A stretch of DNA of 64,000 nt, taken from positions 2,666,001 to 2,730,000 of the forward strand of contig CM035352.1 in assembly GCA_020137815.1 (NCBI GenBank), read 5' to 3'. The notes under the pieces are model-generated. The model was not told the origin of the DNA. It ran no database searches and worked only from the letters and a program-made list of their open reading frames with translations. A program made the translations under genes and the position numbers. Positions 15,230-64,000 of this stretch are shown here, in pieces; the first letter of the stretch is position 1; each line of letters starts with the position of its first letter. Origin of the DNA: Hormiphora californensis. Its lineage: Eukaryota; Animalia; Ctenophora.

Positions 15230-16703
<1,474 letters not shown>

Positions 16704-24790: not shown

Positions 24791-25047
24791 TGTGTAGCTA
24801 GAGAGGGATATTGAGTGGTGTGTTAGCGGGGAGGGGGGAGCTTGGTTAGAGGGTGGGGGTTTCAGGGGAAAGAAACAAAATGAAATTAGCGAAACAAATA
24901 GTAAACCGTCAACGGTACAAATTCATATACGACACTACTACTTCTTCCAGAATACTGGGGGAGAAAAAAGGGGGGAAACAATGTCTGTCATGGGGTAGTA
25001 ACTAGGAGTGCGGTAGTACACTAAAAGTAACTGGGAGCTGGGGATTT

Positions 25048-25424
25048 CTACTTCATTGCCTTCTTCTCGAGTTCTGCTTTGAGCTGTTTTGAGAAATCAT
25101 CCTCGATCTTGTCATCATCCCAGTTGTCCTCCCAAACCTGTAGAGATCAGTGTAAAGATGATGATATGAAGAACAGTGGAAACTTGATGTAAAGCCAAAA
25201 CATCACAGAATAGGAAAGCTGTAGCTACGATAAAGTAGTTGCCTAGCAACAACTAACCTGTCTAGCAACAACTAACCTGCCTAGCAACAACAACTCACCT
25301 GGAGGTCTGCTGAATCAGTCTGCTCCTTGCTCCACTCCTCTACAGGGAAGTCCTCGAATTCATCATCCTCCTCCAACTTTCCAAGGTTGGGCTGCTTGCC
25401 AGTCTTCACTTCACCTTTAGTCAT
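25048..25424 (-). CDS. SEM1: SEM1/DSS1 26S proteasome subunit; exons 25424-25299 and 25137-25048
   Basis: [15 protein letters not shown]...[23 protein letters not shown]; missed by the ORF track. Confidence 0.93.
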
Positions 25425-25625
25425 GTTGCTATGAGCTAGATTGAGATGTTGTTAGTCTTGTTGCTAGCTCTAGAGACAATGAGAGATCTATATTGGATAT
25501 TGAGCTGCTGTCTGTTAGCTGGAATTAAATGTGAGATGATGAAAACACAGTTTAATCGGTCCAATAACTTAAAAGGTGCTTTAAAAATAATAATTTAACT
25601 TTAAAAGAATCATGTCTCCCCTGAG

Positions 25626-28600: not shown

Positions 28601-29261
28601 CAACTTCTCCTGCTGCTGCTGCAGTTTCCCCCTCATCAGCACCTTCCTCCTGGTCGTCATCTGAGGAACCCTCGCTGTCACTACCCTCCTCGTCACCACT
28701 GAAATTCAACAAATCTGGATCGTTTTCTTGGAGGAATTTGTAGAACTCTGAGTCTTGTTCCTGGAGCCTAGATAGGCCTTCTTTCACATCCTCTCCCTCT
28801 GCAGCAGGTTCCTCAAGGGGGGCCTCTTCTGGTGTGACAGACTCAGTGACTTCGGGTGCTTTTTGTTTCTTTTTCTTCTTCTTTTTATTTTTAGCTGGTT
28901 TTGTTTCAGAATCTTTCTCATCTCCGGCCTCCTCTTCTTTTGTTTCAACAGCAGCCGTGAGGGCGGTCTCATTTTCTTCGATTTTAACAGCTGCAGCTGC
29001 GAGGGGGGCCTCCTTCTCTTTCACCTTTTTCTTCTTCTTCTTCTTCACCCCATTCTCTTCACCATCTCCATTAGCAGCCACCTTCTTCTTCTTCTTCTTG
29101 GGCTTCACTACTTTCTGTGAGACCTCCTCCTCCTCGGAATCCCCGACATCAATATCTGCAAATGATGCCATGAAGGCCTCAGCATCCATTGCACCCAACT
29201 CACTAACCGATGGGCCAGCATCCTTCTTCCGCTTGCGCTTTACTTCCGGCTGGTTCACCAT
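25626..29261 (-). CDS. NOC2L: Nucleolar complex protein 2 homolog (multi-exon)
   Basis: LQEQDSEFYKFLQENDPDLLNFS, VYNWQYINCLHVW, FFPLHLH, IAFPEASFPV and an acidic C-terminus EDMVEDFVLSD. Confidence 0.88.
26747..27250. mobile_element. Intronic MITE with poly-G/poly-C ends
   Basis: TIR ggggggggggcctgccgcaa(g/a)aatctca; flanked on both sides by ATATGT. Confidence 0.75.
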
Positions 29262-29479
29262 GGCTATTTAAACTGTAACATAAAGGGGCTATTGTTAATT
29301 GAGCTAATAGGAAGCTGAAGCCTGAAAGTAAAACCAAAATCTTGCAAAATATATATGTTAAGTTTACAAGTTAACTCCGGGTGAATTATGATAATGATAT
29401 AATCGCATAAATTACTGTCAAATGTAAAAACTCCCATTGTAAAATTTTGAGATATAATATAATTCTTTAGGTAGCACTG

Positions 29480-30233: not shown

Positions 30234-33200
30234 TTACTTTTTCTTCTTCTCCTTTCCCCTGTTCTTTTCTCTCTCCAGGGCACTGTCGTAGAACTCTTGA
30301 ATACCCAGATCTCGTAATAGGTTTTTCTGGGATTTTAGGTTGTTAGGCATAAAAAGGCGGGGTTCTAAATGAAAATAGGCTGATATTGTAGAAAACTATT
30401 ATAGAAGGGAGATTGAGAGAGAGAGGAGAGATAGAAAGATGCCAAGTTAAGACGGCACCCTCCCAATTACAGGGGGCACTTAGAGGGGGGCTGCGGCCAT
30501 AATTATGATGTTTTGATTTCATCAATTACAGTCCCATCTCTCTTCAACAGTACCCGAATCTATAATCAGTAACTTACATGACTCATCACGTAAGGTTTGC
30601 CGCTGTTAGTCTGTTTTACAATTCTAGCCGGTTTTCCTCCCTCGAACACGACAATCGCTGGCAGCTCAGCCTGTCATCGGGGAGAGGATAGTTAGATGAT
30701 GCTGAGATGATAGTAGAAGAGAGAAAGAAGAGGAGAGTTGGAGGAAAGTGAGTATAGGGATCTGATGAAAATGCTAAATACCCAATTAGGGGAGACATAA
30801 CTAGCAAATATTACTTATGATCTGATACTCGTTTTGAAAGCTATTTACCCAGCTGTTGTAACTGCCCATATTGTTTGGAATTGGATCGAAAGACTTCTAC
30901 TTAGTAACTACTGTTAGCTTTTGAAATACTTGAAAATCGGGGTCCGACTGTACCTTGATTGTAGAAGTGCTGATACCGTACTCTTCACACGTTCCCTGAG
31001 ATCTCAAAACATCACATTTTCCAAACTTCATCAGTGCGTGTGTGTACCTGCAGGAATATTAATTGTTAATTAGTTTTAATATTTATGAACATCTGGCTGC
31101 TTGAAATGACAACAAACAGTCTCTCTTTAGTAAATTGCAGGCAAGTAACTTACTCTCTACTGATTGCCCCGAAAATGGGTTTCACGGCATTGCAGTGGGG
31201 GCTGAATGCCGTGTAGAACTCTACAACCCATGTGGTATCAGGGTCTGACTTTAGCTGATCTTTTAGAGAGCCGTCCACAAAATACTTCATCTCTGAAGAC
31301 TCTTCTAATGCAGGTGTTCTTACCAGGACCAATAACACTGAAAATAGTTTGAAGTGAATTAATTTGGTTCAGATGCACGTGCTGCCTCAGGCCCCGGACA
31401 TTGCAAAATTATCTTTGGGATGAATGCAAATGGCTCAACACTGATACATACTTCGATTCATTAATAAATTTCCCTTGAGACACTGTATGTGACCGATCTG
31501 TTTGAACGCAAAGAGAGCTGAGAAATTTCTTGATTCCTCAGAGCTCGAAAATAATTTTTTTAATGATCGCTATATATAATAATCCATTCTTTATCGCTTC
31601 TAATATTGTTTGCAGTAGGTCGATGATGGTATTATTAGTGAGTGGTGACGTGTGAGTAATAAGGGAGGTCATTGGCCTCTTATTACCAAGCATCATCTAC
31701 TTAACTCTTGTTCAACCTCCCCTATCTTTCTTCTATTCTATATTTCGTTCAGATCTCTCTGATCATTGTTGCTACACCTGTCCAGACTTCTAGCTTTCTA
31801 TCTATCTATCTCTCTCCATCCATCTCTCTTTTTATCTTGTTCTAACTTAGTAAACGAGGCACCAGGCATTAACTATTTAACTTATGACTGACCTTCTTAA
31901 TTTTCGCTTATTATACTTTTGCTAGCTCTCAGAGGTACTTATTTATGATGCCCATTTCCCTTATTAAAACCTTTACTAAATATAACTAATATGCATGCTC
32001 TCATCTTTACACACGTCACACTCTTCTCCATTTGTCCCCTCGCTCTCTTTCTTCGCCGCTCTCTTTTTTTTTGGTCGCTCTCTTATCATCACCTCGTTTT
32101 TACTACTCTCACCTTTCTACTTCTCTATACGTCCATTTCTTACCTATCCCTTTATCTCTCCCTCCCTTTCTCTCTCCATCGTTTCCTGTCCATTACCTCT
32201 TTACGAGCAAGAAGCTGCACACTCTCTCACTTTTCCTCTTACTCTTTCTTTATTCAGTCCTCCTGTTAGTCAGCTACTGCAGTTAATGACACTTGTTTTG
32301 GTGTAACCTACATTCAGCTGATATTCTGTAGAATAGGATTGTAGACAATCTTCTCCTCTCTTTTCTTGTTGCAGAGTCTTTTTTCAAAAAGAGTAAGTTT
32401 GCACCTAACGACTGAGACGATTATATCGTTTTACTTTAATAGCGACAGAGTCTCTCCTACAATAACTCGTTTTATTTTTGTTTCTCTCAGTCTCTTTTTG
32501 AACTAATGATAAGAATTCTTCATTCTTCAATTGTCCATGGTAAACCATTCTAGAACATTCTTGTCTCTGTTGAAACAGTAAGAAAAACCACAACTTTTTC
32601 AGTCATGACTTTGTTTTCCAACGCCACTATCAACGAAAACCCAACGCCTCGTGCCGTGGACAACGTACTTGGAGTCAGTTTTATTGTCATGTTTATCCTT
32701 TCTATCTTCCTCAACCCCATCAGTTTCCTTTATCACAGCAGACGAAAAACCCTGGAGGCGGCCCTCTACACATATCTCGCTATCTGTGACTTTGTGATAA
32801 ACTTGTGGGTTCCCCTGGCAGCGGCCCAACATCTCCTAGCATCAGACGCCCCAGTGGACAAGGTGGCGAGCATCGAGGACCGATGTGCCTACCTTGTGTA
32901 TTTTACATTTTCAGCCTACAGTGGATTATTGATCAACATTCTTCTAATTTGCACAGCCATCAGGATAGGACGTCCGGGGTCTATCATACCAAAAGGGCCG
33001 GTACTTCGGTTGATCTCTGCTATAATGGGTCTATACACGGTACTCCAATTCCTAGCAGCGTTTGCACCGGACCCTAAGGGTAAACCGATGTGGGCCGCAT
33101 GGAGCCTATCCATCCACTACAAAAACAGTTTCGAGGCAGTTGTCTGGGTAACGTACATTATCTTCTTCGCCCCGGGACCACCACTAATGGTGGCAGCTAT

Positions 33201-33952
33201 CCAACACATCTCAAAGCGTCACATCCCTCCAAACCACTTCTCTCGGTGGGAGTGTGTCAAAGTGGTTAGTTTGTGTATACCAAACTTTATCTATCCAATC
33301 ATCCTGACGATTGACTTCTTTCTCTGGGAGGGTGATAAAACTGGGCGGAGTCCCGGGGAGGAGAGCGTGGCTAGTGATCAAGCTAACATGATGACATTCT
33401 TCGGCAAGACTTTCTTTCCCGTGTTTTCATCAGCATGGAATGCAGTGTTTTGTGTTTCTCTTGACAGGCAATCTGAGGTGCATGGTAGCGAACTGGTTCA
33501 GGAAAGCCAGAGAATAGGAAACGAATTGAAGAGGTTGGTAACTTGTGATTTGTGAATTGTATTATATGCTCATTGTTCCCATTTCATTTAAATATATCCA
33601 TGTTTTGTTTTAAATCGGTGGATACTCGGTGGAAAGGCTTGGGGGTTTCGGTAAATGGGGGCCCGACTGTGTAGTGTGTAGGGTTTGTAGACACTAGCAA
33701 TAACTAATAGGCACTTACCTATACAGAGAAGTAGATACCATCCGGCCACCTGTATATCTGACTTGTAGAACAGAAGACAGCTGCCAGCCTTTGCGAACAT
33801 GAATAGGGTGGAGAGGTAGGATTCTATGCTGACACAGCGCCGGTTTTTAATCGCCACTACACATATCACGAAGAAGTATATCTCAATCTCGTACTGGAAC
33901 GAGGGTTAACCGAGTTGAGTTTTAGTTTATTGAGAAGAAAACTGAGATAGCA

Positions 33953-36258: not shown

Positions 36259-37727
36259 TATGATCGCAAAAGGCAAGCTTCCCCTCGTCCGACCCGAAGT
36301 TGGGAGATTCGTCGACACAGCAACCTTCAGGCTGTTAAAATATTTTTTGATGCGCGGCGGCCTGTTTATTATAGTAGGGTCGGTTGTGGGAAGTTGGGTC
36401 TGGAATTATAAATTTGACTTTCTGATATGATTAGGGACTCTATAAAAAGTCCAAAGTACCATCCCACAGGTCTCTACCAACCCCGGTTCACTTATTAGTC
36501 GTAATTATGTGATTTATGACGTTATCGCCAATTAGCACTAATAATACCAGTTCCTGGTCACTTTGAGCTTAGATTTTGATACCAGCTGATAGAGGATCAC
36601 TAGATTTTTCCGTTTGGCTGGCACCACGTGGGATTAGGGGTTTAGGTCGTCATGGGAGGTCGACATTGGTCGCGTTCGATCGGGCTCGATGAGGTGATCA
36701 AAAGCTAGTGGGCCAGACCTTGGCCCCACCCCGTTCTTGGCTTATTGGGCTTTTTCGGTTTCCCGCCAAAATATTTTCCCGCCATATATATGCTTTATTT
36801 TTTTGCCCCTGCACTGCCACTGCACATTTTTTTAATTGCTTATAATTAATTTGATAATCAATTTTGAATATTCCCACTTTTTGTAGACCTTTCTATATGC
36901 TTGAACTACATTACTGCAAAATTTTAGGCCGTTATTTATAGCAGAACGGAAAATATTTTCAAATGCTCAGGGGCAATGCTCAGGGGCACCATAAAAATGT
37001 CCATTTTTTAATTGCTTATAACTCATTGATTACTTAATTTTGAATATTCCCACCTTTTGTAGACCTTTCTATATGCTTGAAGAGCATTCCTACAAAGTTT
37101 CAAGTCGATATTTCAAGCAGATCGGGAGATAATTGCGGCTCAGGTGCCCCTGGGCCACTTTTGTTAGTGCGGGGGCAATTTTAAAATTTTAATTGCTTAT
37201 AATTAATTAATTAAGTAAAAAATCAAAAATCAGGCTCCGTGGTGACTCTCAGTTATACCACTAGAACATGCCTACAAAGTTTTAGATCGATATGTCAAAC
37301 AGTGTGGCCACAGTTTGAATTTTAAAATTGCCCAGGGGCAGTTTTTTCAAATGCCCGGGGGCAAAATTCAGGGGCACCAGAAATGTCCATTTTTGCATGC
37401 CTATAACTCATTGATTACTTAATTTTGACTATTCTAACTTTTTGTAGATCATTTTTTATGCTTGAAGAGCATTCCTACAAAGTTTCAAGTCGATATTTCA
37501 AGCAGATCGGGAGATAATTTCGGCTCAGGGGCAATGCCCAGGGGACAGAACACCCCATGCTCAGGGGCACGGTGCAGGGGCTACTTTTTAATTACCTATA
37601 ATTAATTAATTAGGCAAAAAATCAAAAATCCGGCCACGTTATGACACGTAGTTATACTACTAGAACACGCCTACAAAATTTCAGGTCGATATCTCAAAAA
37701 ATGTGGCCACAATCGCTGCCTGAAATT

Positions 37728-37770
<43 letters not shown>

Positions 37771-39268
37771 GACCTACGTTTGTATATATGATCGCAAAAG
37801 GCAAGCTTCCCCTCGTCCGACCCGAAGTTGGGAGATTCGTCGAAACAGCAACCTTCAGGCTGTTAAAATATTTTTTGATGCGCAGCGGCCTGTTTATTAT
37901 AGTAGGGTCGGTTGTGGGAAGTTGGGTCTGGAATTTTAAATTTGACTTTCTGATATGATTAGGGACTCTATAAAAAGTCCAAAGTACCATCCCACAGGTC
38001 TCTACCACCCCCAGTTCACTAATTAGTCGTAATTATGTGATTTATGACGTTATCGCCAATTAGCACTAATAATGCCAGTTCCTGGTCACTTAGAGCTTAG
38101 ATTTTGATACCAGCTGATAGAGGATCACTAGATTTTTCCGTTTGGCTGGCGGTTGGCTGGCACCACGTGGGATTAGGGGTTTAGGTCGTCGTGGGAGGTC
38201 GACATTGGTCGCGTTCGATCGGGCTCGATGAGGTGATCAAAAGCGAGTGGGCCAGACCTTGGCCCCACCCCGTTCTTGGCTTATTGGGCTTTTTCGGTTT
38301 CCCGCCAAAATATTTTCCCGCCATATATATGCTTTATTTTTTTGCCCCTGCACTGCCACTGCACATTTTTTTAATTGCTTATAATTAATTTGATAATCAA
38401 TTTTGAATATTCCCACTTTTTGTAGACCTTTCTATATGCTTGAACTACATTACTGCAAAATTTTAGGCCGTTATTTATAGCAGAACGGAAAATATTTTCA
38501 AATGCCCAGGGGCAATGCTCAGGGGCACCAGAAAAATGTCCATTTTTTAATTGCTTATAATCAATTGGATAATTAATTTTGAATAGTCCCACCTTTTGTA
38601 GACCTTTCTATATGCTTGAAGAGCATTCCTACAAAGTTTCAAGTCGATATTTCAAGCAGATCGGGAGATAATTGCGGCTCAGGTGCCCCTGGGCCACTTT
38701 TGTTAGTGCGAGGGCAATTTTAAAATTTTAATTGCTTATAATTAATTAATTAAGTAAAAAATCAAAAATCAGGCTCCGTGGTGACTCTTAGTTATACCAC
38801 TAAAACATGCCTACAAAGTTTTAGATCGATATGTCAAACAGTGTGGCCACAATTTGAATTTTAAAATTGCCCAGGGGCAGTTTTTTCAAATGCTCGGGGG
38901 CAAAATTCAGGGGCACCAGAAATGTCCATTTTTGCATGCCTATAACTCATTGATTACTTAATTTTGACTATTCTAACTTTTTGTAGATCATTTTTTATGC
39001 TTGAAGAGCATTCCTACAAAGTTTCAAGTCGATATTTCAAGCAGATCGGGAGATAATTTCGGCTCAGGGGCAATGCCCAGGGGACAGAACACCCCATGCT
39101 CAGGGGCACGGTGCAGGGGCTACTTTTTAATTACCTATAATTAATTAATTAGGCAAAAAATCAAAAATCCGGCCACGTTATGACACGTAGTTATACTACT
39201 AGAACACGCCTACAAAATTTCAGGTCGATATCTCAAAAAATGTGGCCACAATCGCTGCCTGAAATTTG

Positions 39269-39697: not shown

Positions 39698-40810
39698 ACT
39701 CGTTCGTTACGTTGCATTTCGTTTCACTTTTGCTTGTCTCAGACACCAAAAAGGGCTATTTTACTCAATAAAATGCAACTCAAATCTGTCTCTAGTTCTC
39801 ATTTCCATCACACATGACCTCCCAGTTACCACTGAACTGTCTCTCGAGCCTGGCCTAGTCTCCTCACTAAACTACAGCTACATTCTTGGCCAATATTAGC
39901 TCTTCCCCTCACTAAAATGCAACTTAAATCCGCCTCAAATACCAATATTCAAGAAAATATGATCTCTCAGTCAACAGCGAGCAGTCTCCCCGGTAACGCA
40001 CAGTCCAATAGTTGGTTTAGGGCTCCAATTTTGGCCAAAATCGACCAAAACTTTGGAATTTCGCATTTAATTAAATTTGGGAAACTTTGTACTTTGCCAT
40101 TGCGTGTTTGATAAAGGAGCACTAACAAGTCACAGAGCAGAATTCTATTCATTACTCGTTCGTTACGTTGCATTTCGTTTCACTTTTGCTTGTCTCAGAC
40201 ACCAAAAAGGGCTATTTTCTTCAATAAAATGCAACTCAAATCTGTCTCTAGTTCTCATTTCCATCACACATGACCTCCCAGTTACCACTGAACTGTCTCT
40301 CGGGCCTGGCCTAGTCTCCTCACTAAACTACAGCTACATTCTTGGCCAATATTAGCTCTTCCCCTCACTAAAATACAACTTAAATCCGCCTCAAATACCA
40401 ATATTCGAGAAAATATGATCTCTCAGTCAACAGCGAGCAGTCTCCCCGGCAACGCACAGTCCAATAGTTGGTTTAGGGCTCCAATTTTGGCCAAAATCGA
40501 CCAAAACTTTGGAATTTCGCATTTAATTAAATTTGGGAAACTTTGTACTTTGCCATTGCGTGTTTGATAAAGGAGCACTAACAAGTCACAGAGCAGAATT
40601 CTATTCATTACTCGTTCGTTACGTTGCATTTCGTTTCACTTTTGCTTGTCTCAGACACCAAAAAGGGCTATTTTCCTCAATAAAATGCAACTCAAATCTG
40701 TCTCTAGTTCTCATTTCCATCACACATGACCTCCCAGTTACCACTGAACTGTCTCTCGGGCCTGGCCTAGTCTCCTCACTAAACTACAGCTACATTCTTG
40801 GCCAATATTA
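39698..40810 (+). repeat. 456-bp tandem repeat, about 2.4 copies
   Basis: actcgttcgttacgttgcatttc recurs at ~39698, 40154 and 40610. Confidence 0.9.
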
Positions 40811-41257
40811 CCCACCGCCCCACCCCCACCCGCCCTCCCCCACCCACCTCTCCCAATATAGCGGACATTGCTAAACACCACACTACAGAGACAATCCTTG
40901 TGTTTTGGTGCACTAAGTCGCTTATCGCGTGTAACAATTAATAAATGTTCTTATCAGGCCACCCGATTTGTCTTCTAGAACATCTTACATTCCAGTAGCG
41001 CTACAATCTGTCCTACCCCTTATTTGTGTTTGATCGTTTTCGTTTATCTTTGTCTCTACTGGAAATGGACACACTTCACATCTCATCATGTCACCAACAC
41101 GTCACGGTACCCATAACATCCATCAAGGTCGTAAGTTTGTCAGTCCGTTGTTATGTACAGTTGTATCCAAAATATGATCGTGGCCATTGAGATTCTATTC
41201 TTATTCTTAAGTTAGTATCTTTAGCTAGCGCTGCTGACAGACCGTACTCACAATGGA

Positions 41258-44579: not shown

Positions 44580-46155
44580 TCAATAATGTGATCTCTGAAG
44601 TCGTCTCTGTTCCTCCATCTCTCTAGCTCGCTGTTCCTCTGCTTGTCGCTCTATCTCGGCATATTTCTTCCTGTTTTTAACTTCCTGACGGTGTGTGATT
44701 TATATTAGGAAAGGTAGTTAAATTAAGTCGTGACCCGCCTACGGGATTCTCTAGTTATCTAGTTTCCCTGCTTATAGAATTTCCTCGTTCCTGATTTCTC
44801 TTCTCAAATTCTCCGAATTTATGATAAAAATAGCACATCGCCCAACAGTTAAGTTGAGAAGATTGCAAAACGTGAATTTCTAAGTGACGCAGTCGGACCC
44901 CGATTTACCGGAACCCCGATTTACCGGGAGGATAAATTCCCCCCGATATACCAAATTATCGGTATTTGACCCCGATTCACCGGGCACCCCGATTTACCGG
45001 GCAAAACACTTTCCCCGGAGTATCCCGGTACATCTGGATCCTAGTGTCCTACTGTAGTAACAATTTTCAAACAAACCGTATACAAGATGAGAGCTCCCTT
45101 GCTATTGTTTGGTAGGCGATGTTGGAACATCTGGAGTGTGAGGAGCGATAGCCCCTTTCCGTTGAAACCGAACATCAGTGGGTCAATGTCATGGATCTCG
45201 TAGGTTCGGGAACACCAACGCAACCAAAGCATCACTTCAGAAACACTCCAGGTCTTGGGATCTGGGGAATTTAGATGCTGAAAACTTGACATTAAATGCT
45301 TCTCTTGAAGAACAAAATTATTTGCATTATGTTCTAACGTAACGCATTCGCACGGGCAGGGAAAAATGAAAGAAATTTGGGAAAAATGTAAAATATACTG
45401 CATAACGTTTACCGATTTGTAGAATTGGTGGGGTGTTGGGTGCGTTATGAAAGATTCTGGCAGCCTCAAGATTCGGACGTTCAAGGGGGGTAAACGGGAT
45501 CGTTCCGGCAAGCAACACTAAAACATAATATTATTTAGTGAAAAATAGTATATGTTTTGGTATGAGCTAGATTGCATAACTGGACAAGTGTGCGGTGTGC
45601 GTCACTCGTCAGTTTAGTAGTATTCTATGATTAAGCCTAGGGTACTACTATTCCCAGAACTTAAAAGGGCAACCAATCATTGACGTGTTAGTGTGTTACT
45701 AAACAATCATCGACGTGATTAGGATGATATAGGACTTACTATCGGAGACGGTCATGGGCTGATTATCATTAACGGAAGTGCTAGTACCGGGTTGGTTCCA
45801 AGCTCCGGGGGGTTCCTGATTGTGAGGTGCTGCGGTTCTCCTGGAGTCTGTTCGTACTGTAATGAGAGACTTGTGTCAAAACACAAAGCACCACAACAAA
45901 ATCAATGCAGTTACATATAAGAGAAAAATATTCACTAGTAAATAATCAATGCACTTTAGAGATAAATAATCGCTAGGTAGTTAGGTCTTGGATGAGACTG
46001 AAAGTTTTTACAATTCAAAGCGTCACTAACAAAAGCACAAATTCAAAGTCAATTAAGATTAAGATTAAAAGTGTCACAAATTGAATGTGACTGCAGCCTA
46101 CCTGTGCATAAGTGTAATCGTAGTTGTAGTGGGAGTTGTAGTAATTGTAAGCCAT
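44580..46155 (-). CDS. SAM/Pointed (PNT) domain protein without a detectable ETS domain
   Basis: PDPKTWSVSEVMLWLRWC...FNGKGLSLLTLQMFQHRLP...GALILY matches the PNT consensus and splices in phase to a short charged last exon (44684-44580) with a stop. Upstream exons are tentative. Confidence 0.65.
44891..45050. mobile_element. Degenerate copy of the CAGTCGGACCCCGATTT MITE family
   Basis: Same terminus as 59405-59576; other fragments at ~46990-47172, 55080-55168, 30936-30952 and 33650-33672. Confidence 0.7.
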
Positions 46156-48076
46156 TTTCCCGACTGTTGAACCGTATTGTAGCAAGGCCAAAAGCAACCT
46201 GACAAAGCAGAGTGTTACCGAAAAGAGGATATATCATGACAGCCCCCATGATCCACTATGGTTTAATTAACGATAAAAGACAGTTTAGCAACACTTACAT
46301 GCCTCCCACAAAACTCCCAACAAAAGACAACGCATCAAGCATACTGCACCTACTCTATAAAGAACTAAGTAGTTGAACAAGATGTGGGCAGCAGCAGAAC
46401 ACAAACTAATACACCTGATATTTGATTATTTGATGATGTGAATACCTTACCGTGGATAAACCGGTGGAGAGGACGGGGCGAATTGTGCACACAAGATAGG
46501 ACCAAAATGTAAACTGAACTCCGCCCTCGCGATTTAAAGGGTGATGAATCAATGTATTATGCCTTTATTTGGTTTTGATTTGCCGCTATCACCTCCCCGA
46601 ATTGCATGCCCATATATGGTGTTGGGGTGGTTTGTAAATATATAGAAGCCCCCCATCCCCTCTCTCTCTTGCTCAAAGCTCCACCCCTGCAGAGAGAGGT
46701 AGTTACACAATCAAATGTAACGTCACAGTAATTAGAGCAAGCTGTCACACATGCGATTATATATGGTGAAAATTTACCATTATTCCATAATAGATCACGA
46801 AAGGCTACACAAAACCTGCTAACGTCAGAATCATCGGATATTTTTAGTTCGGATCACTTAAGATGACATTCCTTAATTTGTTCATAAGTTTCATGATTGA
46901 TTCCTCATTCCTTCCCGAAATAGATATCTCTCTAATAGGTTCTGTATGCTCATGTCACTTGAGAAATGTATCTTGTCTGCTACTTTTCATAAAACCTCGA
47001 TTTACCGGGCCACACCAGAAACTCGATTTACCGGAACATCAATTTACGGGAGGATAAACTTCCCCCGATATAGGAAATTATTGGTATTTGACCCCGATAT
47101 ATAATACCGGGCACCCCGTCATACTGGGTAAAACCCTTTCCCCGAGTATCCTGGTAAATAGGGGTCCGACTGTACTTCACCTCTACCATGAATGATGCAT
47201 CGCATATAATATTTTTCGCACCCCGGTTTAATAAAATGCTATTGTCGTGCGATAACATGAGCTCTTTCCCCGATAACATGAACCTTTTCCCCGATAACAT
47301 GAGCCCTTTCTCTGTAACTTTTACCGTGGGGTGCATCTATATTGGTTTCTCTTTCTTCGTGACCTGGCGACCTATATTTTTCTATTTTTAATGTGTGGCG
47401 AAAAAGGAAATGAGTGCGAGTAGAAAATTACTATTACATGCGTTTGGAATAATTGTTATAAGCCTTAGAGCTCTTTTGAAGAGTGTGCAATCAAACATTC
47501 TGTTTTTCTCGCTGGTTATCCCTAACATCGTTTTAGTTGCTTGATGTTAATGAGTACATGATGATAGCAAGTCTTCAATTTTGAACTTGTTTATTGTTTT
47601 AACGATCGGCCATAATTATAGTTCGACCAATAACTCCCCGTGCATCCCATGCAAGGGAAACCGCTTCCGAAAGAAGGACGTATGAAGAAGAAAAAAACGA
47701 TTGATTTATCCTGATTCATGATTATGTGATTAAATATTTATGCTGTTTTCTGTCAGCTGGTTGAAAGTAGTTGTAACTCGCTTTCTATGCAAAAGGTCTC
47801 TGATTTTAATCTCAGATCAGATCCAAGCCGGCTAGTCAAGCTATGTTTGGTACAGATTTTGATGTTTCGCTTCATTATTCGTAAAACTAGCCCCTTTTTT
47901 ATAATGTAGATTGATGAAACTAGCCACTAGGGAGATAAGCTCCTGAAGAGACCTACCCTTAGATTGGGCACGTCACGCTATCCCCTGTATGTAACACGCT
48001 GCCAAACCCTTAGATTAAACCTGTTCGAACGGATGACTTTAGATTTTTATCCGGGAAGCAAGGATTACACATGACT

Positions 48077-53341: not shown

Positions 53342-56300
53342 ATGTTGCTTCTATATTTCTCCATAATCGCTCTCTCAACCTGGTAAGGTATTATGTATAT
53401 CATATTTGACCCAGCCTTGATAATTCATATTCAGACATTCCTAGCTGGTTTGTAATCACTCATTATACTGTCCAGGGTATAAGTGTAGAGGATCATTATT
53501 CTTTCTACTTACGAGGTTTAGGCGAGGGTGCCCGGTTTTTGGGACGGGACTCTTTTCTTGTTGATGTTGGGAGAACGGTCGGGGAGCTCAGCAGGGACAA
53601 GGATTTAGGGATTCCTCTTACCAGACCACAGCGGGATGAAGGTCAGCCTGCAGGTTCGATAATGCGAGACAATCACCCGTAGTCATAGGGATGGATCTAT
53701 TATGATAATCCCATAGGGATGGATCTATTATTATGATAGTCTACTGTCTGTCGGCGCCTCAACTTCTGACATGTGACCGTAATAGTGCATGAAGATTGCA
53801 GGTCGGCACCGCCATCTCGTTATAAACATGGTGGAGTCTTTACCCCCCTCACTTGGAGTCGTTACCCTCTAATTATCAGGGGATGAAGTGGTGTTTATTG
53901 AGGACTTCAGGAATATGACAGTTAGACCGGGGAGCCGTCTCTCTTGGCCGTGCGAGGTGAACCAGGCAGAGAGAGTGGATATATTACCAAGAAAACAAAG
54001 TACGTAGCGGCTATAGATTGTATTGGTGATATCCCAATCCTCTTTGGTTGTCCTAGTTTTGATTCGGAATCCACTGTCGATTGACCCCCCTCGGCCCTCC
54101 CCCCTAGATGCCGTGTCAGCTGACTCTGTGGTACGGGAGGGTGCCACTAAAGCTACATTAGTCCTAGAGGATGTGTCATCCAAACACCAGGGCTGGTATT
54201 TCTGTGGAGTCGTCTCTCCTGGTGGACGCCACATGCACAGAGAGGGGTATCTTGCAGTAAAAGGTACTGGTTTATTTTATTATTTTATTAAAGAGCTCCC
54301 ATTAAGGAAGTACGTGTTTACAGACACTGTCTGAGACTGATGAGTATGTGGGAATTGATAAGACACGTTTAATACAAATATAATATCTTACTGCAATTTC
54401 TAGAGTGTCTACGATTGTTGAACGCTTAATCATGTCCTCTTCCCTTCATGTTGGGATACTGGTTTAATATTCGACCAATGATCTTCCCCCTTTCACCAGT
54501 ATAATAACTCTCCTGTTTAGATGTGTGTGGGGATGACCATGACTGTGCTGATTACCAAGTATGTACCCACACTGACCCCCGCTCCGATACCTATACCTGT
54601 TCCTGTGACATTCCCTGTGACGATAACACCTCCACCGGTCCTGTCTGTGGAAGTGACTGTGAGACACATGCCTCAGTCTGTGAGATGAAGAGAGCGGGAT
54701 GTCGAAAGGGTATTGCATTCCTAGAGGTGGTTCACAAGGGACCCTGCTCAGAGACAGGTTATACATTTTAAAGTGGTCTTTTCTTACCAGACGTAGCAAC
54801 TACTAATGCTATTTTCATTTCCCTCCCGAGCACCATATAACCATTCAAATTTTGCTATCGATTTCTGTTGACTATGGTTTCCTAGAATGGTTTTAATTTT
54901 AAATTGTGCAAGTGTGCGGTAACGGCTTAACTCGCTTCATTTACGTAGGAGCACCTCAAGAATTTTGCGTAGGAGTAGTCGAGCGACAGATAACCGAGAA
55001 AGGAAGTTGGAGCTGAGAGAAAGTATTAGAGCAATTTTGAGACTTGACACTTGCAATTTTAGAAACATTTATCATTTAAGATCGGACCTCGATTTACCGG
55101 CCCCCGATTTATTGTACCTCGATATACCGCGCAAGACCCTTTCCCCTAGTATTTCGAGGTCCGAGTCTAACACCGTGTTACTATCCTCAGTTCAGCCCCC
55201 GGTTTTTACCCTGACTCAAGAGGATCTGATTATTGAGGAGGGAGAGGGAGTGGATTTGAGGGTTCTTGCTGAAGCATCTCCTGATCCCACATACAGGTAA
55301 CTCCTGACCTTTCAGAACATTGGCCTGCGGTACCATTATATCGTTGTCTATCTTGTTAATTGGCCTGACCCTATTCTCATTTCTTTCAAAGCTCGCGAGA
55401 ACCGCGATTAGAGCATTGGCCTGACAATTCCTTTTGGAGAATGGAGATATCGGGACAAAAAGTTATTTCTGAAACGCTCTAATATGCAGTAGTATACTAT
55501 GTATGGATAAAAAAACCTTAATAAAAGCTTAGCTGTATGTGTGTTTCGCAACCTACAGATCTACTGACACTAAATACCAACTGATAATCAAGAACTCAGT
55601 ATATGACACTAAATACCGATAAACAGTTTCGTGACGCACGCCCACGTCTCACTTCCCCTCTGTCTCTCAGATGGTTGTTGTCAGGGCACAAGGTTGCAAG
55701 TTCAACAATCAACCCCACGTCTCATTTCACCCTCTCTGTCAGGTGGTTCTTGTCAGGGCACGAGATTACAAGCTCCCCAGAATTTACTGGCAGGATGAGC
55801 GGTCTACTTGAGGGACTATGGGAGGTAGAGGCCAGGAATTGTCATACTAACATTGTAAACACTTCTTTTACATTGACCATGTGTAAGTTGACAACGTAAT
55901 AGTTATATCAGACTCAAACATGAACAATTGATTAAATTGCGATTCAAATTAACTGTATTTTAGTACCGAGGGAGTTTGTGGAGCCGGCAGGTGAGGTGGC
56001 CAGTGTCAGTGGTATGTCCCGAGTTACGTCATTCTCTGGTTCTGAGTCCCTGTACACAGCGAAGGGTACCTTCCTTTTGGTAGAGACCCCCACCACTCTT
56101 GTATATGGGACATTTGAACCGTGTTCAACCGATAACCTGGTAGGATTCATACATGTGAAATCCATTGAGAACTTGTTGAGTAAGGATTGTGAACCCCTTG
56201 AGAATGAATGATAATTATTTTCCTGATATTTCCAAAATATTTCCATATTATTCAGGAAGTGTCCTGCATGACCAGTGGAACTATCCACAGGGGAGGAGAT

Positions 56301-57879
56301 GGAGTACAACTACTAACCCAGAATATTATATCCCACAACGGCTACGCTATTAAAGTAGGAGCACACTCTCACAGCTATAAATTACCACTCTCACAGCTAT
56401 AAATTACCACTCCCTTTCAGATATTTCGAATATATAGCTTTTTATGTACTTGATGAAGGATTCAGAATCATTTATACCTTTCATTAAAATATATCTCCTT
56501 GCCTCTACTACCCTCTACCTCCATTCGCTCTGCGACATCGTGGGTGGTGCTATTTTAACCCACAACTGTATAACCTGTGTGACGCAGGTCGGGGACCGTG
56601 GGGTGAAGCGTGTAGGGAGAACTGGGGACATTGAAGTGGCTGGCGTCAGCACGGGGTACCAAGTCACGACACCCGACCTTACCCTCTACTGGGATGGAGC
56701 CCTAGGTAATAGCTCTGCATGCAGTAAATTAATTATAGTAGTATCTCCTGGAAAGTTTCCAGTCAAATATGGAGTATTTTACTTTTAGTTGGGAGCCCTA
56801 GGTAATAAAAATACTCTGGATGCAGTATATTAGTCTCTCTTTAAAAAATTTCCAGTGAAATATTCATGCAGTATCATATACTTTTAGTTGGACACTTTGA
56901 GTTGGACGCTAACTAGTTTTCACTTCTAACATGATCTAATTGTATTATTCAGGTTACACGGTGACAGTAGAGTGTGAGACAGTAACCAATGGATTATTCG
57001 GTCGGACATCTTGTCATAGTGATGATGATGCCAATGAGTCGGATCCGATCCGGGATTTCCTAATTACTGATCACACCCGAACATGGACAAACCTAGCCCC
57101 ACGATCACAAGAGGATGATTGTGATACTGTCAGGTATGAGGTTGTAGATCTAGCACGATCTATATTTTCTCTCTTGTGCATACCATACGAGGGGGAGGGT
57201 AAAAGTACCCAAGCTTTTTAGATGCATCACTTTTTTTCGGCCACGATTCTGCTTGCAAGGAAAATAACCTTAGCTACAAAAATTTTATTCCCCATTTATC
57301 ATTGTCGTCACCTTTTTAGATTCGAGAAGAAATGCAAAGAAATAGCCTCATCACCATTGTTTGCGAGCTGCCTGGGTTTCCTCGATTCGTCTGTGTTGGT
57401 ATCAAGCTGTGTTCAAGATGCCTGTACTAGATCTTGTACTGACTGCAGATCCAGACCAGATAACACTTATCGGGTAAGAATGGATGTAACGGTCAAATAC
57501 AATATGAAAAAGTTTCTAAAATTGTAATAGTTTCCACTAATAGTTCTTCTTTTCCAGTTCTATCCAAGTCCTGGGTGTCAGTTAGCAAGTGATATGGCTA
57601 TCCAGTGTTCCATCAGAGGAACCTACCTTCCGCCCTCCTGGAGAGACGCTGTATCTTGTCAAGATGGTGAGATGTTCCATATCCATCCCTCTCTTACCCC
57701 CACTCATCCCGCCCAGGCCCCTACCTGAGTATTCTATTCTGGCCCCTCCCCTCGGCCTCGACCCTCTTTTAGTGCCAACGCCGCTCTCTTTTCACCACCA
57801 CCCACTTCATTGTTCAGAGTTGTTGTCGTCAACACGCCCTGGAGTCTGCAGGCGGAACAGTGGATACGCCCTCTCCTAG
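53342..57879 (+). CDS. Secreted Ig + FOLN/Kazal + Ig + VWD + C8 mosaic protein (multi-exon)
   Basis: Signal-like MLLLYFSIIALST; Ig (WPC...ATLVLEDVSSKHQGWYFC); Kazal (PVCGSDCETHASVCEMKRAGC...HKGPC); Ig (PPVFT...ASPDPTYRWF); VWD-like (SGMSRVTSFSG...GTFLLV, NGLFG); C8-like (CKEIASSPLFASC...CVQDAC...SWRDAVSC). Confidence 0.65.
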
Positions 57880-57917
57880 ATGGACGATGAGCTATAACAA
57901 TGGGGGCTAAACAGACA

Positions 57918-57920
<3 letters not shown>

Positions 57921-58011
<91 letters not shown>
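57921..58011 (+). repeat. (GA)n microsatellite
   Basis: Direct reading. Confidence 0.95.
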
Positions 58012-58015
<4 letters not shown>

Positions 58016-58134
58016 TCTGTGTGTTACAACATACTATTGTTCAGACAGGTTGTTCTAAGACCAACAAAGTGTGTCTTTTTGTTCTCTGCCATCTATTTAA
58101 AGTAACACGCCCTTTCACTCTCACTTTCCTAATT

Positions 58135-60590
58135 ATGGCTTATCTGAAAGGTGTTGCCAGTGCGTTCCCTGAAAACACTATCTCTGCTTCCGATCTTGTT
58201 GATCTCTTTGAGCATGAAACATTTGGTTACTCCCCCGGTCGGATCTCTGCCATCAAGAAACTTGTACAGTCAATGGAGATTGAGAGTAGACCCACTGCAG
58301 TTAATTTTGAACAGTTTTGGAGGCCCCTGACTGAGGAGAAGGGTGGTGTGAATGGGGAGAATTTGTTCCGGAGATCTGGATTCAGGCCAACAATGAGTGA
58401 CCGGGCTACTGTGTGGGAGGTGGCTGCCAAGGTAATTACTATTGCTTACTTGCTCGATTTCTGAATTGTTAAAATATGTTACTGTTGATAAAAAGTTTTG
58501 CCTTTCTCGATCCTCTCGATCCGCGCCCCAGGGAGACCTTTGGTTGCCCCAGGGAGACCTTTGGTTGCCAAAGTTTTGGCTCAGGAAATAAACCAATTCC
58601 AAACTTCTAATTCTCCTAGGAGCTATCACGGGATGCGGCAAGGCGAGTCCTGAACAAAACTAACACACCCCTGGGGGAGGTGGATTGTGTGGTTACCAAT
58701 ACATCTACTGGCGTTATACTACCCAATCTGAGCACCTGGCTACCTCAACAACTGGGCCTACCAAACCTGAAGTAAGTCTAGTAGGTGAGGGACAGTTTTT
58801 GGACCAAAATGGATGTTTTGAGTGCTAGTAGATTTTACCTTCCATTGTAGAATTAAGGAGGTCCTCCGACAATTTTAGTAGACCATTCATCTCTCCCCAG
58901 CTCCATCTCCCCCTCTCTCTCCAGATGTAACTATTCTCTGGATAACACGGGGTGTGGTGGTGCCATCTCCTGTTTAGATCTTGCACGATCTCTCATCCTT
59001 GCCAAACGAGCTACCTGCATTCTTGTCGTCACAGTCGGTAAGAGTTAAATAGAAATATGGAATATAACTGCATAGTCTATTATATAATGGGATCACATGA
59101 AGGTAGTCTTCCCCCCTCTTCGTGGGTGGGTCAGTTGGTTGTCGTGACCTAGTTACTAAAAACCACGCAGTGCAGAGTCACTTCGTGGGTATATACCTTT
59201 TCTCTCTTTTGCGTCGGAGTAAATGGAATGTTCTATATAAAAAGGGGTCACATGTTTTCACAATCCCACATGTTGTACCCAGCAATGGTAGTTGAGAGTT
59301 GAATTGTTGTGCAACGTCATTTCTAAGATACTATGCAGTTATAAACTTGCGAACAAGACACACCCTGCGTAACGAGTTCTTCAGACAGTCTCCTTTAGAT
59401 ATTACAGTCGGACCCCGATTTAGGGACACCCTCGGGGGAAAGGCTCTTGTCCACTAAATCGGGGTGTCCACTAAATCGGGGTCAAATAAGGTTAAATTCC
59501 TATATCGGGGGGAAAAAATCCTGACCCTAAATCGGGGTGCCACTAAATCGGGGGTCCCTAAATCGGGGTCCGACTGTAGTAGGGGTGTAGTTAAATTATA
59601 GTAGGGGTATCATGCCCAATACAAGCGAGACACACTCCCTCATCTTGTCTTACTCCCGTTAGAACATATAACAACCCTCCTTCTCCACAGATTGCAGTAT
59701 CAAAGCCAGCCAAACTAAAACAACCCTCCTCCCCACAGATTGCAGTACGCCATACATCAACACTGGTAGTAGAGAGGTAATGGAGGCCGTCCTACCCAAC
59801 CTACTGTTTGGAGATGGTGCGGGTGCTGCTATTGTAACTAGTGCCAGAGAGAAAGGGAGTTGGAGGTTAGACGAACCAGCCGGGGTACTGTTAGGACCTG
59901 AAACAGCCAACTATATCCACCTGAAGGTAGGTTTTATACATGGTACATGGAACTTTACTGCACGTAAAAATATGATAATACCTATTCCTCCTCCCCCTAC
60001 ATTCCCTCTCCCCTAAATTCCCCCTCCCCCTACAATTTACATTCCCTCGCTCACTGCTCTCAAATTCCCCTCCTCCTCACCCCCTCATCTCCCCCGATTA
60101 GTTGACAGACCAGGGATACCATCTGAACTTGTCTCGAGACCTAGTTCCAGCGATAAAGGGTGTCTTAGAGGATCACTGGGACCGGCTAACTAAGGGTCTA
60201 CCAGCCTCCCCTGAACAAACTGAATGGGCACTTCACCCGGGCGGAAAGGGTAGGTTGTTTAAATATTGGGGTTGGTTGGACCTTGTAGACAGAAAGAAAG
60301 CGATATTTCCTCCCACCCACATAACATGGAATGGTATTGTGATTCAAATTGTATTTGAACTAACAAAATTGCTTTCAGGAATTCTTGATGCATTCCGATC
60401 CCATGGCCTGTCTGCTGAGTCCCTCCGACATTCATACCGTGTTATGAGAGAGAAAGGGAACATTGTCTCATCTACATTATTCTTTGTATTAGAGATGTTA
60501 CTAGAGGATCACCAGTACCCCCACGCCTGTCTAGTGGGTCCTGGACCCGGCATTGAACTCAAACTTATGGCTATAGAGAAAGTGGTGTAA
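58135..60590 (+). CDS. Type III polyketide synthase (chalcone/stilbene synthase superfamily), ~369 aa; exons 58135-58431, 58620-58771, 58925-59037, 59739-59926, 60102-60249, 60379-60590
   Basis: Phase-consistent GT-AG exons give GVASAFP, VVTNTSTG, NTGCGG (catalytic Cys), LLFGDGAGA, WALHPGG (His), KGNIVSS (Asn) and GPGPGIE. Confidence 0.9.
59405..59576. mobile_element. Complete Tc1/mariner-pogo-like MITE in PKS intron 3
   Basis: TIR cagtcggaccccgatttaggga...tccctaaatcggggtccgactg flanked by a TA target duplication. Confidence 0.85.
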
Positions 60591-62239
60591 CAGAGCGTTA
60601 GAACAATATATTTTATGTGACTGTTTTTAATTTCATTCCCTTCATTCCTCGACCATCTTTCATTGTAATAAAGAGTTAGTAAGAGTTTTTGAATCTTTGA
60701 GTTTTGCGTAGTAGAACCTGTGAAGTGGTATCGCATTTCGGTAATGATGTATTTCGGTAGCGTCTAGCGAACTGTTAGGCTTGTGGTGTGTAATCTCTCT
60801 GTTGGTGACGTGTATTCTTATCTATTATTTTACTGTTCATGAGATAGTTGTCGTTCAGATTGTTCCAGAATTCTGCAGAATCGTCCAGATATGAAAATCA
60901 TGATTTCGGATCACTTTTCCAGTCGGTGGTCGAAAAGACTTTCTGTCGCAGTGAGTGGGCGGCAGGCGCGCGGACTAATTAGAAGTGTAAGTGTACTATC
61001 CGCGCACTGGAAAACTCTCACGCGTGAGAACATGGAGCTGGAGACCCTGAGGGTAGGGACCAAGGCGCCAATTACACACACTTCCCCTGTCTTATCTCTA
61101 GCGTGGCGTGTCTGTTACCCTCGGGCCTCGGTACATTTTAGTTTGACCGTCACCAGGATCCAAAGCTTAGAAATTGACCAGATGTGTATGATTGTGCATG
61201 ATTGGCGGTGCAGTGATGTGGAGACTGGAGTTCGTATGTGGCCTGGATTCCACAATGTGGAGTCCACATTGATTGTGGAGTCCACATTGATTGTGGAGTC
61301 CACATACTGATACATAGTCCAATGCCCACATTGTGGACACTGGACCATCTGAAACGAGCCTTAAACGTGTAGGTGCTTACTGTTATACTACATTACTACT
61401 ATAAGCTGTTAATAAGATTTCTCACCCCTCCTCTCTCCGACTTCTCTCACCCCTGGCCTCTCGCTGAATGATATCTCTCTCTCTCATCTTTCTCATCAGC
61501 GCTAGTGAGATATGTATCTTGGCTGATTGCCCAAGCTCAATTGAGTCTCTCACCTTTTGTGGTATTGTCGTTGTTTCCTTGCTTGTACCCCCAGCTTGTA
61601 CCCCCAGCCCCACACTTGTTACTCGACAACCGCTGCATGTAATATCAATCATTTACCATTTTACCATATCGACATATCAGTATCTTATTATCAGGGTGTG
61701 AACTGCATGTCGTGTTTGCTAGTCGCGAGCGCGCTTGCGAGACAAGTAAACACGTCAAGGTTCATTAACAAGCATGCTGCTCAGTCATTTTAGATTTAAT
61801 ACACAATGTAAGGATACCATGTAATAGGTGAGACTCTTGCCGTCACCCTCGTTCAAGTCCCGTGAAAAACGGAGCAGTACACGCAAACTGATGCCAATTT
61901 TCCTCGCGTGACCCCGATTCAGCAGTTTGAGACACCAACTCTTTAGGGGGCCATATCTCAGGAACCAGACAAGATAGGAAAAATCGCCGTCTAATGAGGC
62001 GTACAGTTTTTAATCTAGTTTACCACTGTACCGGCCGTTTCACTCTCCGACCTAAAACAAAAATCGCAACCCCACAAAACTTCAAAATAATGAAATTCGC
62101 ATCTCGCATGTCGTGTTGCATGTCGTGTCATGTTATTGACGCGCTCGCGTTCAACTCTCACACAGCAGCTGCAGAACATGGCGGGAAACATCGAGGAGTA
62201 GAGAGAGGGTCGGTGCCGAATCAAATATTTCTTGATCTT

Positions 62240-64000
62240 GATCTACTCCATCTCTCAGCTATCCTACCCCTCATCAACTCGATCTCTCAGCTACCCTACC
62301 CCTCATCTACTCCATCTTTCAGCTACCCTACCCCTCATCTACTCCATCTTTCAGCTACCCTACCCCTTATCTAGTCCATCTCTCAGCTACCCTACTCCTC
62401 ATCTACTCCATCTCTCAGCTTCCCTATTAGGGAAGCATAGAGATGGAAACGATTAGGGGTAGGGAATCCCTATCCATAATCGTTTCCATCTCTATGCTTC
62501 CCTAGCCCTCATCAACTCCATCTTTCAGCTACCCTACCCCTAATCTAGTCCATCTCTCCGCTACCCTACTCCTCATCTACTCCATCTCTCAGCTACCCTA
62601 CCTCCCATTTACTCCATCTCTCAGCTACCCTACCTCCCATTTACTCCATCTCTCAGCTTCCCTACCTCCCATTTACTCCATCTCTCAGCTTACCTACCTC
62701 CCATTTACTCCATATCTCAGCTTCCCTAACTGCCATTTACTCCATCTTTCAGATACCCTACCTCCCATTTACTCCATCTCTCAGCTTCCCTACCTCCCAT
62801 TTACTCCATCTCTCAGCTACCCAACCTCCCATTCACTCCATCTATCAGCTACCCTACCTCCCATTTACTCCATCTCTCAGCTTCCCTACCTCCCATTTAC
62901 TCCATCTCTTAGCTTACCTACCTCCCATTTACTCCATATCTCAGCTTCCCTACCTCCCATTTACTCCATCTCTCAGATACCCTACCTCCCATTTACTCCA
63001 TCTCTCAGCTTACCTACCTTCCATTTACTCCATCTCTCAGCTTCCCTACCTCCCATTTACTCTATCCCTCAGCTACCCTACCTCCCATTTGATCCATCTC
63101 TCAGCTTCCCTACCTCCCATTTACTCCATTTCTCAGCTTCCCTACCTCTCATTTACTTACTCCATCTCTCAGCTACCCTACCTCTCATTTAGTACTCCAT
63201 CTCTCAGCTACCCTACCTCCCATTTACTCCATCTCTCAGCTTCCCTACCCTCCCATTTACTCCATCTCTCAGCTTCCCTACCTCCCATTTACTCCATCTC
63301 TCAGCTACCTTACCTTCCATTTACTCCATCTCTCAGCTTCCCTTCCTCCCATTTACTCCATCTCTCAGCTACCCTACCTCCCATTTACTCCATCTCTCAG
63401 CTTCCCTACCTCCCATTTACTCCATCTCTCAGCTTCCCTACCTCCCATTTTACTCCCATCTCTCAGGGGTAGGAATGTTAGGATAAATGAGAGATGGAGT
63501 AAATGGGAGGTAGGGAAGCTGAGAGATGGAGTAAATGGGAGGTAGGGAAGCTGAGAGATGGAGTAAATTGGGAGGTAGGGAAGGTAAGCGATGGAGTAAA
63601 TGGGAGGAAGGGAAGCTGAAAGATGGAGTAAATGGGAGGTAGGGAAGCTGAGAGATGGAGTAAGTGGGAGGTAGGGTAGCTGAGAGATGGAGTAAAATGG
63701 GAGGTAGGGAAGTTGAGAGATGGAGTAAATGGGAGGTAGGGAAGCTGAGGGATGGAGTAAATGGGAGGTAGGGAAGCTGAGAGATGGAGTAATGGGAGGT
63801 AGGGAAGCTGAGAGATGGATAAATGGGTGGGTAGGGTAGCTGAGAGATGGAGTGAATGGGGAGTAGGGTAGCTGAGAGATGGAGTAAATGGGAGGCAGGG
63901 ATGGAGTAAATGGGAGGTAGGGAAGCTGAGAGATGGAGTAAATGGGAGGTAAGGTAGCTGAGAGATGGAGTAAATGGGAGGAAGGGAAGCTGAGAGATGG
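62240..64000. repeat. ~32-bp satellite array that flips orientation at ~63465-63490
   Basis: catttactccatctctcagcttccctacctcc units up to ~63465, then reverse-complement units to the window end. Confidence 0.93.

Follow-up and report, generated by a model that had tools for sequence, protein, structure and literature searches.

Polyketide synthases (PKSs) of type III are, to our knowledge, not standard animal enzymes. The closest described system is the Mnemiopsis leidyi gene ML18354a, which Hernandez and Ryan reported in 2018 as a putative chalcone and stilbene synthase transferred to Mnemiopsis (PMC6005172). In the portion of that report consulted here, the donor is entered as bacterial and unknown ('Bac, Unknown'), no product is stated, no animal RefSeq match was found, and expression spikes at 9-12 hours post fertilization, during tentacle morphogenesis; the word 'paralog' is absent from its main text. 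A sequence-only reading that preceded our analysis had suggested that a chalcone-synthase-like transfer might already be reported from ctenophores, and ML18354a bears this out: a type III PKS in a ctenophore is an already published phenomenon and not a new one. Here, we analyse a 64,000-nucleotide stretch of the ctenophore Hormiphora californensis (the window; assembly GCA_020137815.1, contig CM035352.1, positions 2,666,001 to 2,730,000 of the forward strand), which carries such a gene at window positions 58135..60590. We show that this gene is a real, intact, spliced type III PKS, and that it appears to be a second, previously undescribed paralog with a rebuilt substrate pocket, which we call copy B.

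Six exons, all on the forward strand, splice into a 1110-nt frame encoding 369 amino acids and a stop, the size that had been proposed, and all five introns (188, 153, 701, 175 and 129 nt) have GT..AG borders. Exon 1 (58135..58431) encodes residues 1-99 and ends in ...VK; exon 2 (58620..58771) encodes residues 100-150 and carries a TNTS(S/T)G loop specific to ctenophores; exon 3 (58925..59037) holds the catalytic Cys160 within DNTGCGG. Exon 4 (59739..59926) contributes Asp188, Tyr193, Pro207, Phe211 and Leu249, which correspond to Glu192, Thr197, Gly211, Phe215 and Gly256 of chalcone synthase (CHS), exon 5 (60102..60249) provides Leu258 (CHS Phe265) and the catalytic His295 within HPGG, and exon 6 (60379..60590) supplies the catalytic Asn327, Val329 (CHS Ser338), a GPGPG loop and the stop. 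The motifs first read as a type III PKS signature all lie where they had been placed: GCGG (C160), LFGDG (F211), HPGG (H295), GNIVS (N327) and GPG (353).

Contigs from three sequencing runs were compared over 57900-60900: X1, a metatranscriptome; X2, taken as RNA by guess; and X3, which was set aside because only 33 intronic bases matched. The gene is present in two of these runs, X1 and X2. A single 545-nt contig of X2 splices introns 2, 3 and 4 at the predicted sites, and X1 does the same for introns 3 and 4, so that exon 3 has junctions in both runs; X1 also covers the 3' end of the gene, with a contig spanning 60521-60727 that includes an AATAAA-type polyadenylation signal (60667..60672, forward strand). 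The RNA junction support called for by the sequence-only reading is thus in place for introns 2, 3 and 4, whereas introns 1 and 5 were not bridged by contigs of X1 or X2. Intron 3 has a tandemly duplicated acceptor (59670..59747) with both copies in frame; an exon beginning at the upstream copy (59691) would be longer by 16 residues, a form rejected as the main one because the RNA-type contigs of X1 and X2 use the downstream acceptor. Intron 5 (60250..60378, 129 nt) is open in frame, and a retained form would add 43 residues after HPGGK. Contigs of both runs stop at the end of exon 5 (60250), with differing unlike letters, and alternative splicing at this point is possible; orthologs read straight through the site. 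Silent changes make up 9 of the 11 exonic differences from the run contigs, against an expectation of 25% (p=1.5e-4; of the 16 letters at which the X2 contig differs, 10 enter the comparison), and therefore the gene is under purifying selection.

A search with the 3' open reading frame (ORF) recovered one protein among 357 candidates, and that protein in turn recovered 53 of 7,997, with scores dropping sharply after five. In a comparison with 74 proteins, the spliced window protein comes closest to Bolinopsis microptera XP_063688999.1 (53% identity) and Mnemiopsis KAL5270340.1 (52%), the others reaching at most about 31%; these two copy B orthologs sit on contigs of 18 Mb and 13 Mb, respectively. 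The orthologs by themselves point to a ctenophore as the likely source, and the similar distance to both species suggests that it is probably not closely related to either. A profile search of 1.84 billion representatives, with 3,757 matches of which the best 150 were listed, brought out a second ctenophore family, P0076, whose cluster includes Mnemiopsis KAL5253875.1 and Bolinopsis XP_063682565.1 (copy A). Both paralogs are present in Mnemiopsis and in Bolinopsis. Identities are 86-100% among A rows (n=11), 53-73% among B rows (n=5) and 28-33% between A and B, which differ at CHS positions 137, 139, 165, 192, 194, 211, 338 and 373. The Mnemiopsis-Bolinopsis distance is 0.039 for A and 0.319 for B; from these sequences, copy B is estimated to evolve about eight times faster than copy A. 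A conservation of 86-100% in copy A (P0076, P0224-P0236 and P0251) is unusual for a transferred secondary-metabolism enzyme; this copy carries Ala338, Val256 and Tyr165, and an otherwise conserved Arg near the N-terminus is missing from it.

The identities of ML18354a to other ctenophores in Table S4 of the 2018 report, taken without their column headings, are 88, 90, 89, 90, 31, 92 and 95% (PMC6005172). These values fit the A group and not the B group, and the 31% fits an A-to-B match. With the database size assumed, and computed against the enzyme of Acanthamoeba alone, a species in the database of that paper, the alien index is about 87 for A and 41-43 for the Mnemiopsis B models. Since the latter lie below the published threshold of 45, copy B would likely have fallen under the cut-off in 2018. 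As far as these partial source data and sequence comparisons reach, the window gene's group is with high probability a separate paralog from ML18354a. In listings from the open-licence PMC and bioRxiv literature, the 2018 report was the one relevant paper, and neither a functional study of the ctenophore gene nor any reference to a second copy came to light; the main text of PMC11258130 contains neither 'type III' nor 'chalcone'; the two-copy state of ctenophores seems new.

Family membership was likewise supported by profiles. The C-terminal piece of the window protein scores 31.2 bits against the Chal_sti_synt Pfam cut-off of 27, single N-terminal exons score below it, and exon 1 alone matches no Pfam or NCBIfam family; in the orthologs, both Chal_sti_synt_N and Chal_sti_synt_C exceed the cut-off (56.0/50.9 bits for P0002 and 46.5/51.9 for P0057), so this proposed check turned out in favour of the assignment. 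C160, H295 and N327 align with the Cys-His-Asn triad of solved enzymes, the gatekeeper Phe215 is F211, Pro375 is P356, and the loop reads GPGPG rather than GFGPG in all five B rows. The gene is a stand-alone, single-domain one of 369 residues without an acyl carrier protein (ACP). Structure was predicted for the Bolinopsis ortholog instead of the spliced window protein, with a pLDDT (predicted local distance difference test) of 93.4 and a pTM (predicted template modelling score) of 0.93; the model aligns with type III PKS structures over 350 residues (Z 44.7, root-mean-square deviation (rmsd) 2.1 Å), consistent with a full-length CHS-type thiolase fold, and all its listed structure matches are type III PKSs. 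These searches support the fold only, and function could not be ranked from them; ESM Atlas clusters were generic, bacterial for P0002 and plant for P0078. By triad, domains, fold and Phe215/Pro375, copy B stays a member of the family, from which we assume a homodimer, and it is very probably an active type III PKS. Because neither copy has the hydrophobic N-terminus common in protist relatives, A and B are likely cytosolic.

Pocket residues were mapped onto CHS numbering, which we take to be that of the alfalfa enzyme, by aligning the sequences with HMMER to 2-pyrone synthase, octaketide synthase and moss CHS. The triad and Phe215 are retained in all five B rows, which carry Leu/Met256, Val338, His/Tyr197, Gly165, Leu265, Asp192, Pro211 and Pro373. 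Where chalcone synthase has Thr197, Gly256, Phe265 and Ser338, the window protein has Tyr, Leu, Leu and Val, and on its pocket residues copy B is excluded as a chalcone synthase. Against the sequences in PDB, the B profile matches 2-pyrone synthase best (111.8 bits; next 103.1), and moss chalcone synthase tops the list for copy A. According to the part of PMC6274091 consulted, bulk at position 256 marks acetyl- over coumaroyl-coenzyme A (CoA) users, the changes T197L/G256L/S338I shrink the pocket of 2-pyrone synthase, position 197 gates the acyl tunnel as well as the buried pocket, and aldol closure in stilbene synthase depends on a Glu192-Thr132-water-Ser338 network, which biphenyl synthase can dispense with when it cyclises its product. 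Since copy B follows the 2-pyrone pattern at 197/256/338 and the aldol network is absent, we tentatively predict, with slightly less than even confidence, a short-chain alpha-pyrone made from aliphatic acyl-CoA. Copy B would act as a soluble homodimer, as other type III PKSs do, with Cys160 accepting the starter and His295 and Asn327 decarboxylating malonyl-CoA, so that a short aliphatic acyl-CoA would be condensed with about two malonyl-CoA units. The bulky residues at CHS positions 197, 256 and 338 would leave no room for a coumaroyl starter and would limit the chain, which, without the Glu192-Thr132-Ser338 network, would close as a lactone to give the alpha-pyrone.

Trees were built with FastTree on 366 domains, 26 of 380 proteins being left out as fragments, and with IQ-TREE (LG+C20) on 64 and on 40 chosen rows. 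IQ-TREE supports are 100/100 for B, 100/99 for A+B and 100/100 for the enclosing clade, and the approximately unbiased (AU) test rejects a grouping of A with protists to the exclusion of B, that is, separate origins of the two copies (p=0.00096); A and B form one clade in these trees. The named members of the enclosing clade are Seminavis, Striatella and Attheya, which we take from their names to be diatoms, Abedinium, presumably a dinoflagellate, Artemidia, presumably a diplonemid, and metagenome-assembled genomes (MAGs) of Noviherbaspirillum, Burkholderiales and Thiotrichales; chlamydial and Acanthamoeba enzymes fall outside it. This nesting (100/100) among relatives that are non-animal where named is in keeping with the horizontal origin first suspected from the sequence, which we consider likely for the pair. 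Neither plants nor fungi are among the nearest named relatives, which are marine protists and a rare proteobacterial group, and we lean slightly towards a protist rather than a bacterial donor. The part of PMC7284882 consulted reports CHS-like genes from both diatoms and dinoflagellates and says nothing of metazoa.

Among the matches listed, P0078 is the best-scoring single-domain relative from outside the ctenophores. The Cymbomonas protein P0075 was discarded, as it owes its second rank in the profile search to 12 repeated domains and branches elsewhere. This protein (C. tetramitiformis KAK3233920.1; 4,818 residues, 12 tandem type III PKS domains) may be a merged gene model. Among P0081, P0104, P0211, P0091, P0149 and P0183, type III PKS domains are fused to acyl-AMP ligase/ACP, fatty-acid hydroxylase, methyltransferase or UbiA domains, and P0081 has the PKS domain twice; in diatom members the N-terminus is extended by a long stretch that matches no Pfam family. 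A contig scan for relatives, which covered 80 of 601 stretches and under-counts bacterial clade members, gave 3 of 80 at 49-62% identity to P0193. The gene neighbourhood of one bacterial relative, L002, gave no pathway hint (ORFs read by eye at one of three such loci).

Intron positions add to this picture. All seven N-terminal B fragments end at the site of window intron 1, and intron 2 marks the beginning of all three 230-residue B fragments. Four B fragments on contigs of 24-577 kb read across the sites of introns 4 and 5, and one of them also crosses the intron 3 site; therefore, introns 4 and 5 of the window gene are, on the strength of these fragments, lineage-specific. Copy A boundaries, as estimated from fragments, lie at window protein positions ~128, 230 and 289, none of the three matching the B sites (99, 150, 188, 250 and 300), and A fragments cross B sites 2, 3 and 5. 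The simplest reading is one intronless founder, an early duplication and separate intron gain. A donor gene, likely intronless, from the lineage of diatoms, dinoflagellates, diplonemids and a few proteobacteria would have entered the ctenophore stem, and the founder would then have duplicated. The two copies would have acquired introns separately, A remaining almost frozen and B being rebuilt around its pocket.

Taken whole, as copy B of a pair derived from one transfer and a duplication and making an alpha-pyrone, this reading is in our judgment somewhat better than even. Several points weigh against it. ML18354a has five introns, the same number as the window gene (Table 2, by column order, in the part of PMC6005172 consulted), and it was assigned to A by identity pattern and not by sequence. 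Support for placing the ctenophore pair next to the diatom-dinoflagellate-diplonemid group, as its sister, is 94/77 (64 rows) and 88/86 (40 rows), both unstarred; the AU rejection of ctenophores with the proteobacterial core is marginal (p=0.039), and the AU groups were chosen after tree inspection and involve long branches. Organism names were attached to 4 of 10 and 2 of 10 near relatives in two look-ups, and a holozoan member is possible among the rest. Moreover, product prediction from pocket residues is unreliable, His197 is ancestral in the whole clade and not specific to B, and identities to the PDB matches reach only about 22-26%. The structure search does not discriminate, with 50 entries tied at Z 43.6-44.7, and the top Foldseek match is a long-chain enzyme, PKS18.

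That match also favours an alternative that keeps the same history and makes copy B a long-chain enzyme, whose acyl-binding tunnel would accept C12-C20 acyl-CoA for extension to alkylpyrone or alkylresorcinol lipids. CsyB, Steely1, Ectocarpus PKS-I and PKS11 fall within the tied top ten of VIA-align, the small residues at CHS positions 132, 165 and 194 could open the tunnel, and many protist relatives have hydrophobic N-termini, some relatives being fused to fatty-acyl ligase/ACP or fatty-acid hydroxylase. However, the tunnel entrance at 197 is occupied by His/Tyr, position 198 is Met/Ile, neither A nor B has a hydrophobic anchor, and the aldol network of stilbene synthases is broken, with the reservation that biphenyl synthase does without it (PMC6274091, in the part consulted). 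We regard this explanation as unlikely, though it survives better than the others.

Alternatively, copy B could be a one-step condenser that makes a diketide or beta-ketoacyl-CoA in the manner of KAS III and feeds another pathway, possibly copy A. The B-specific replacements E192D, G211P, F373P and G139N, found in all five B rows at otherwise conserved sites, would suit such a change of role, as would a B stem branch of 1.4-1.6 changes per column. Yet FabH / KAS III models score far under their cut-off on ortholog P0001 (TIGR00747, 37.6 against 292.1 bits), two FabH-like outgroup rows sit many nodes away from the ctenophore enzymes in the FastTree tree, and the listed structure matches belong to type III PKSs throughout. 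This makes a one-step role highly doubtful.

Vertical inheritance of the pair from early opisthokonts, followed by loss in all other animals, is very unlikely. It would accord with the named part of the enclosing clade being mostly eukaryotic, but the presence in that clade of diatoms together with a dinoflagellate, a diplonemid and proteobacteria departs from the species tree. No named holozoan occurs among 20 looked-up proteins or among the 120 rows of another listing of relatives, ML18354a is without an animal RefSeq match in the part of PMC6005172 consulted, and A and B have no common intron site where this was testable.

The locus itself speaks for a gene that has settled in its host. Intron 3 contains a miniature inverted-repeat transposable element (MITE; 59405..59576, 172 bp) whose terminal inverted repeats are perfect over 23 bp and which is flanked by TA at both ends; its family does recur in the window, as had been claimed, at 44890-45020 (78%) and 47024-47172 (71%), and run X1 contigs contain it with different flanks. 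Coding guanine-cytosine (GC) content of the PKS gene is 0.495 and its third-position value (GC3) 0.468, close to the five adjacent stretches (GC3 0.485-0.724). Physical linkage to the flanks is supported by the assembly, the MITE and orthology, and integration, splicing, selection and presence in related species, as expected of a domesticated transfer, were all found. Contamination, against which the sequence-only reading had already argued, chimeric assembly or a pseudogene is accordingly a negligible prospect: no run contig spans the PKS gene and its flanks, but the host-type MITE, the neighbour-like GC and GC3, the spliced contigs and the excess of silent changes all stand against it, as do orthologs in other ctenophores that share introns 1 and 2.

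In a Pfam scan of 24 window ORFs, SAM_PNT, tubulin and helicases, including a DEAH-helicase, scored above cut-off, whereas V-set and the single-exon Ig, C8 and tetraspanin matches scored below. The upstream neighbour (54017..57890, forward strand) includes Ig and C8 domain exons with such sub-threshold matches; on the same strand, about 245 nt separate the end of what is likely its last exon from the start of the PKS. A SAM/Pointed domain exon at 45041-45517 (reverse strand) likely belongs to an ETS-family transcription factor. Housekeeping genes at 15230-29267 presumably encode alpha-tubulin, a DEAD-box helicase, a nearly intronless DHX8/Prp22-like protein and a NOC2-like protein. The window further holds a 333-residue single-exon ORF (32554-33555) that resembles a seven-helix membrane receptor and has no convincing Pfam match, near-identical tandem duplications at 36259-39252 and 39698-40909 (repeating every 1.54 kb and 456 bp or so), and, at 62150-64000, a 32-bp tandem array that flips orientation near 63.47 kb to form large inverted arms.

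That two paralogs have been kept for long while their rates and pockets became very different suggests a real division of chemical labour in one early-branching animal lineage. As a single soluble enzyme of about 40 kDa that is easy to express, copy B makes the question of which small molecules ctenophores produce themselves directly testable. Additionally, the tree reopens the published 'bacterial, unknown' origin and makes a plankton-to-animal transfer possible. It is tempting, though quite improbable at present, to picture a two-enzyme ctenophore polyketide pathway that was acquired early in the phylum, close to its base, from plankton of eukaryotic kind, whose undescribed pyrone or phenolic would serve tentacle or colloblast secretion or defence and in which the Asp192, Pro211 and GPGPG of copy B would perform chemistry that known type III PKSs do not show; the link to tentacles comes solely from the expression spike of ML18354a.

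How copy B relates to known systems depends on the feature compared. Its orthologs in Bolinopsis (XP_063688999.1) and Mnemiopsis (KAL5270340.1), labelled in databases only as 'uncharacterized' or 'hypothetical', have the same pocket residues except Tyr/His197 and Leu/Met256. ML18354a, in the part of its description consulted, resembles the window gene in its type III PKS Pfam set, spliceosomal introns, ctenophore-wide distribution and lack of animal homologs; if it is copy A, it also has TNTSSG, DNTGC and a non-Trp residue at 256 in common. The enzymes of Seminavis, Striatella, Attheya, Abedinium and Artemidia and of the proteobacterial MAGs (L001-L003) belong to the same 100/100 clade, have His197 and the triad, and are 26-29% identical to the window protein, but the protist relatives differ in Trp256, a mostly conserved Ser338 and, often, a hydrophobic N-terminus or a fusion; no characterised member of this group was found in the literature consulted. 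Plant chalcone synthase has the fold, triad, Phe215 and Pro375 in common with copy B, whereas its Thr197, Gly256, Phe265, Ser338 and Glu192 are all replaced. Finally, Gerbera 2-pyrone synthase (PDB 1EE0) is like copy B in its bulky residues at 197, 256 and 338, its small residue at 165 and its fold (Z 44.5, rmsd 2.1 Å, 352 residues), and unlike it in keeping Glu192 and the GFGPG loop and in being a plant enzyme of about 25% identity; since the two are not close relatives, any such likeness would be convergent.
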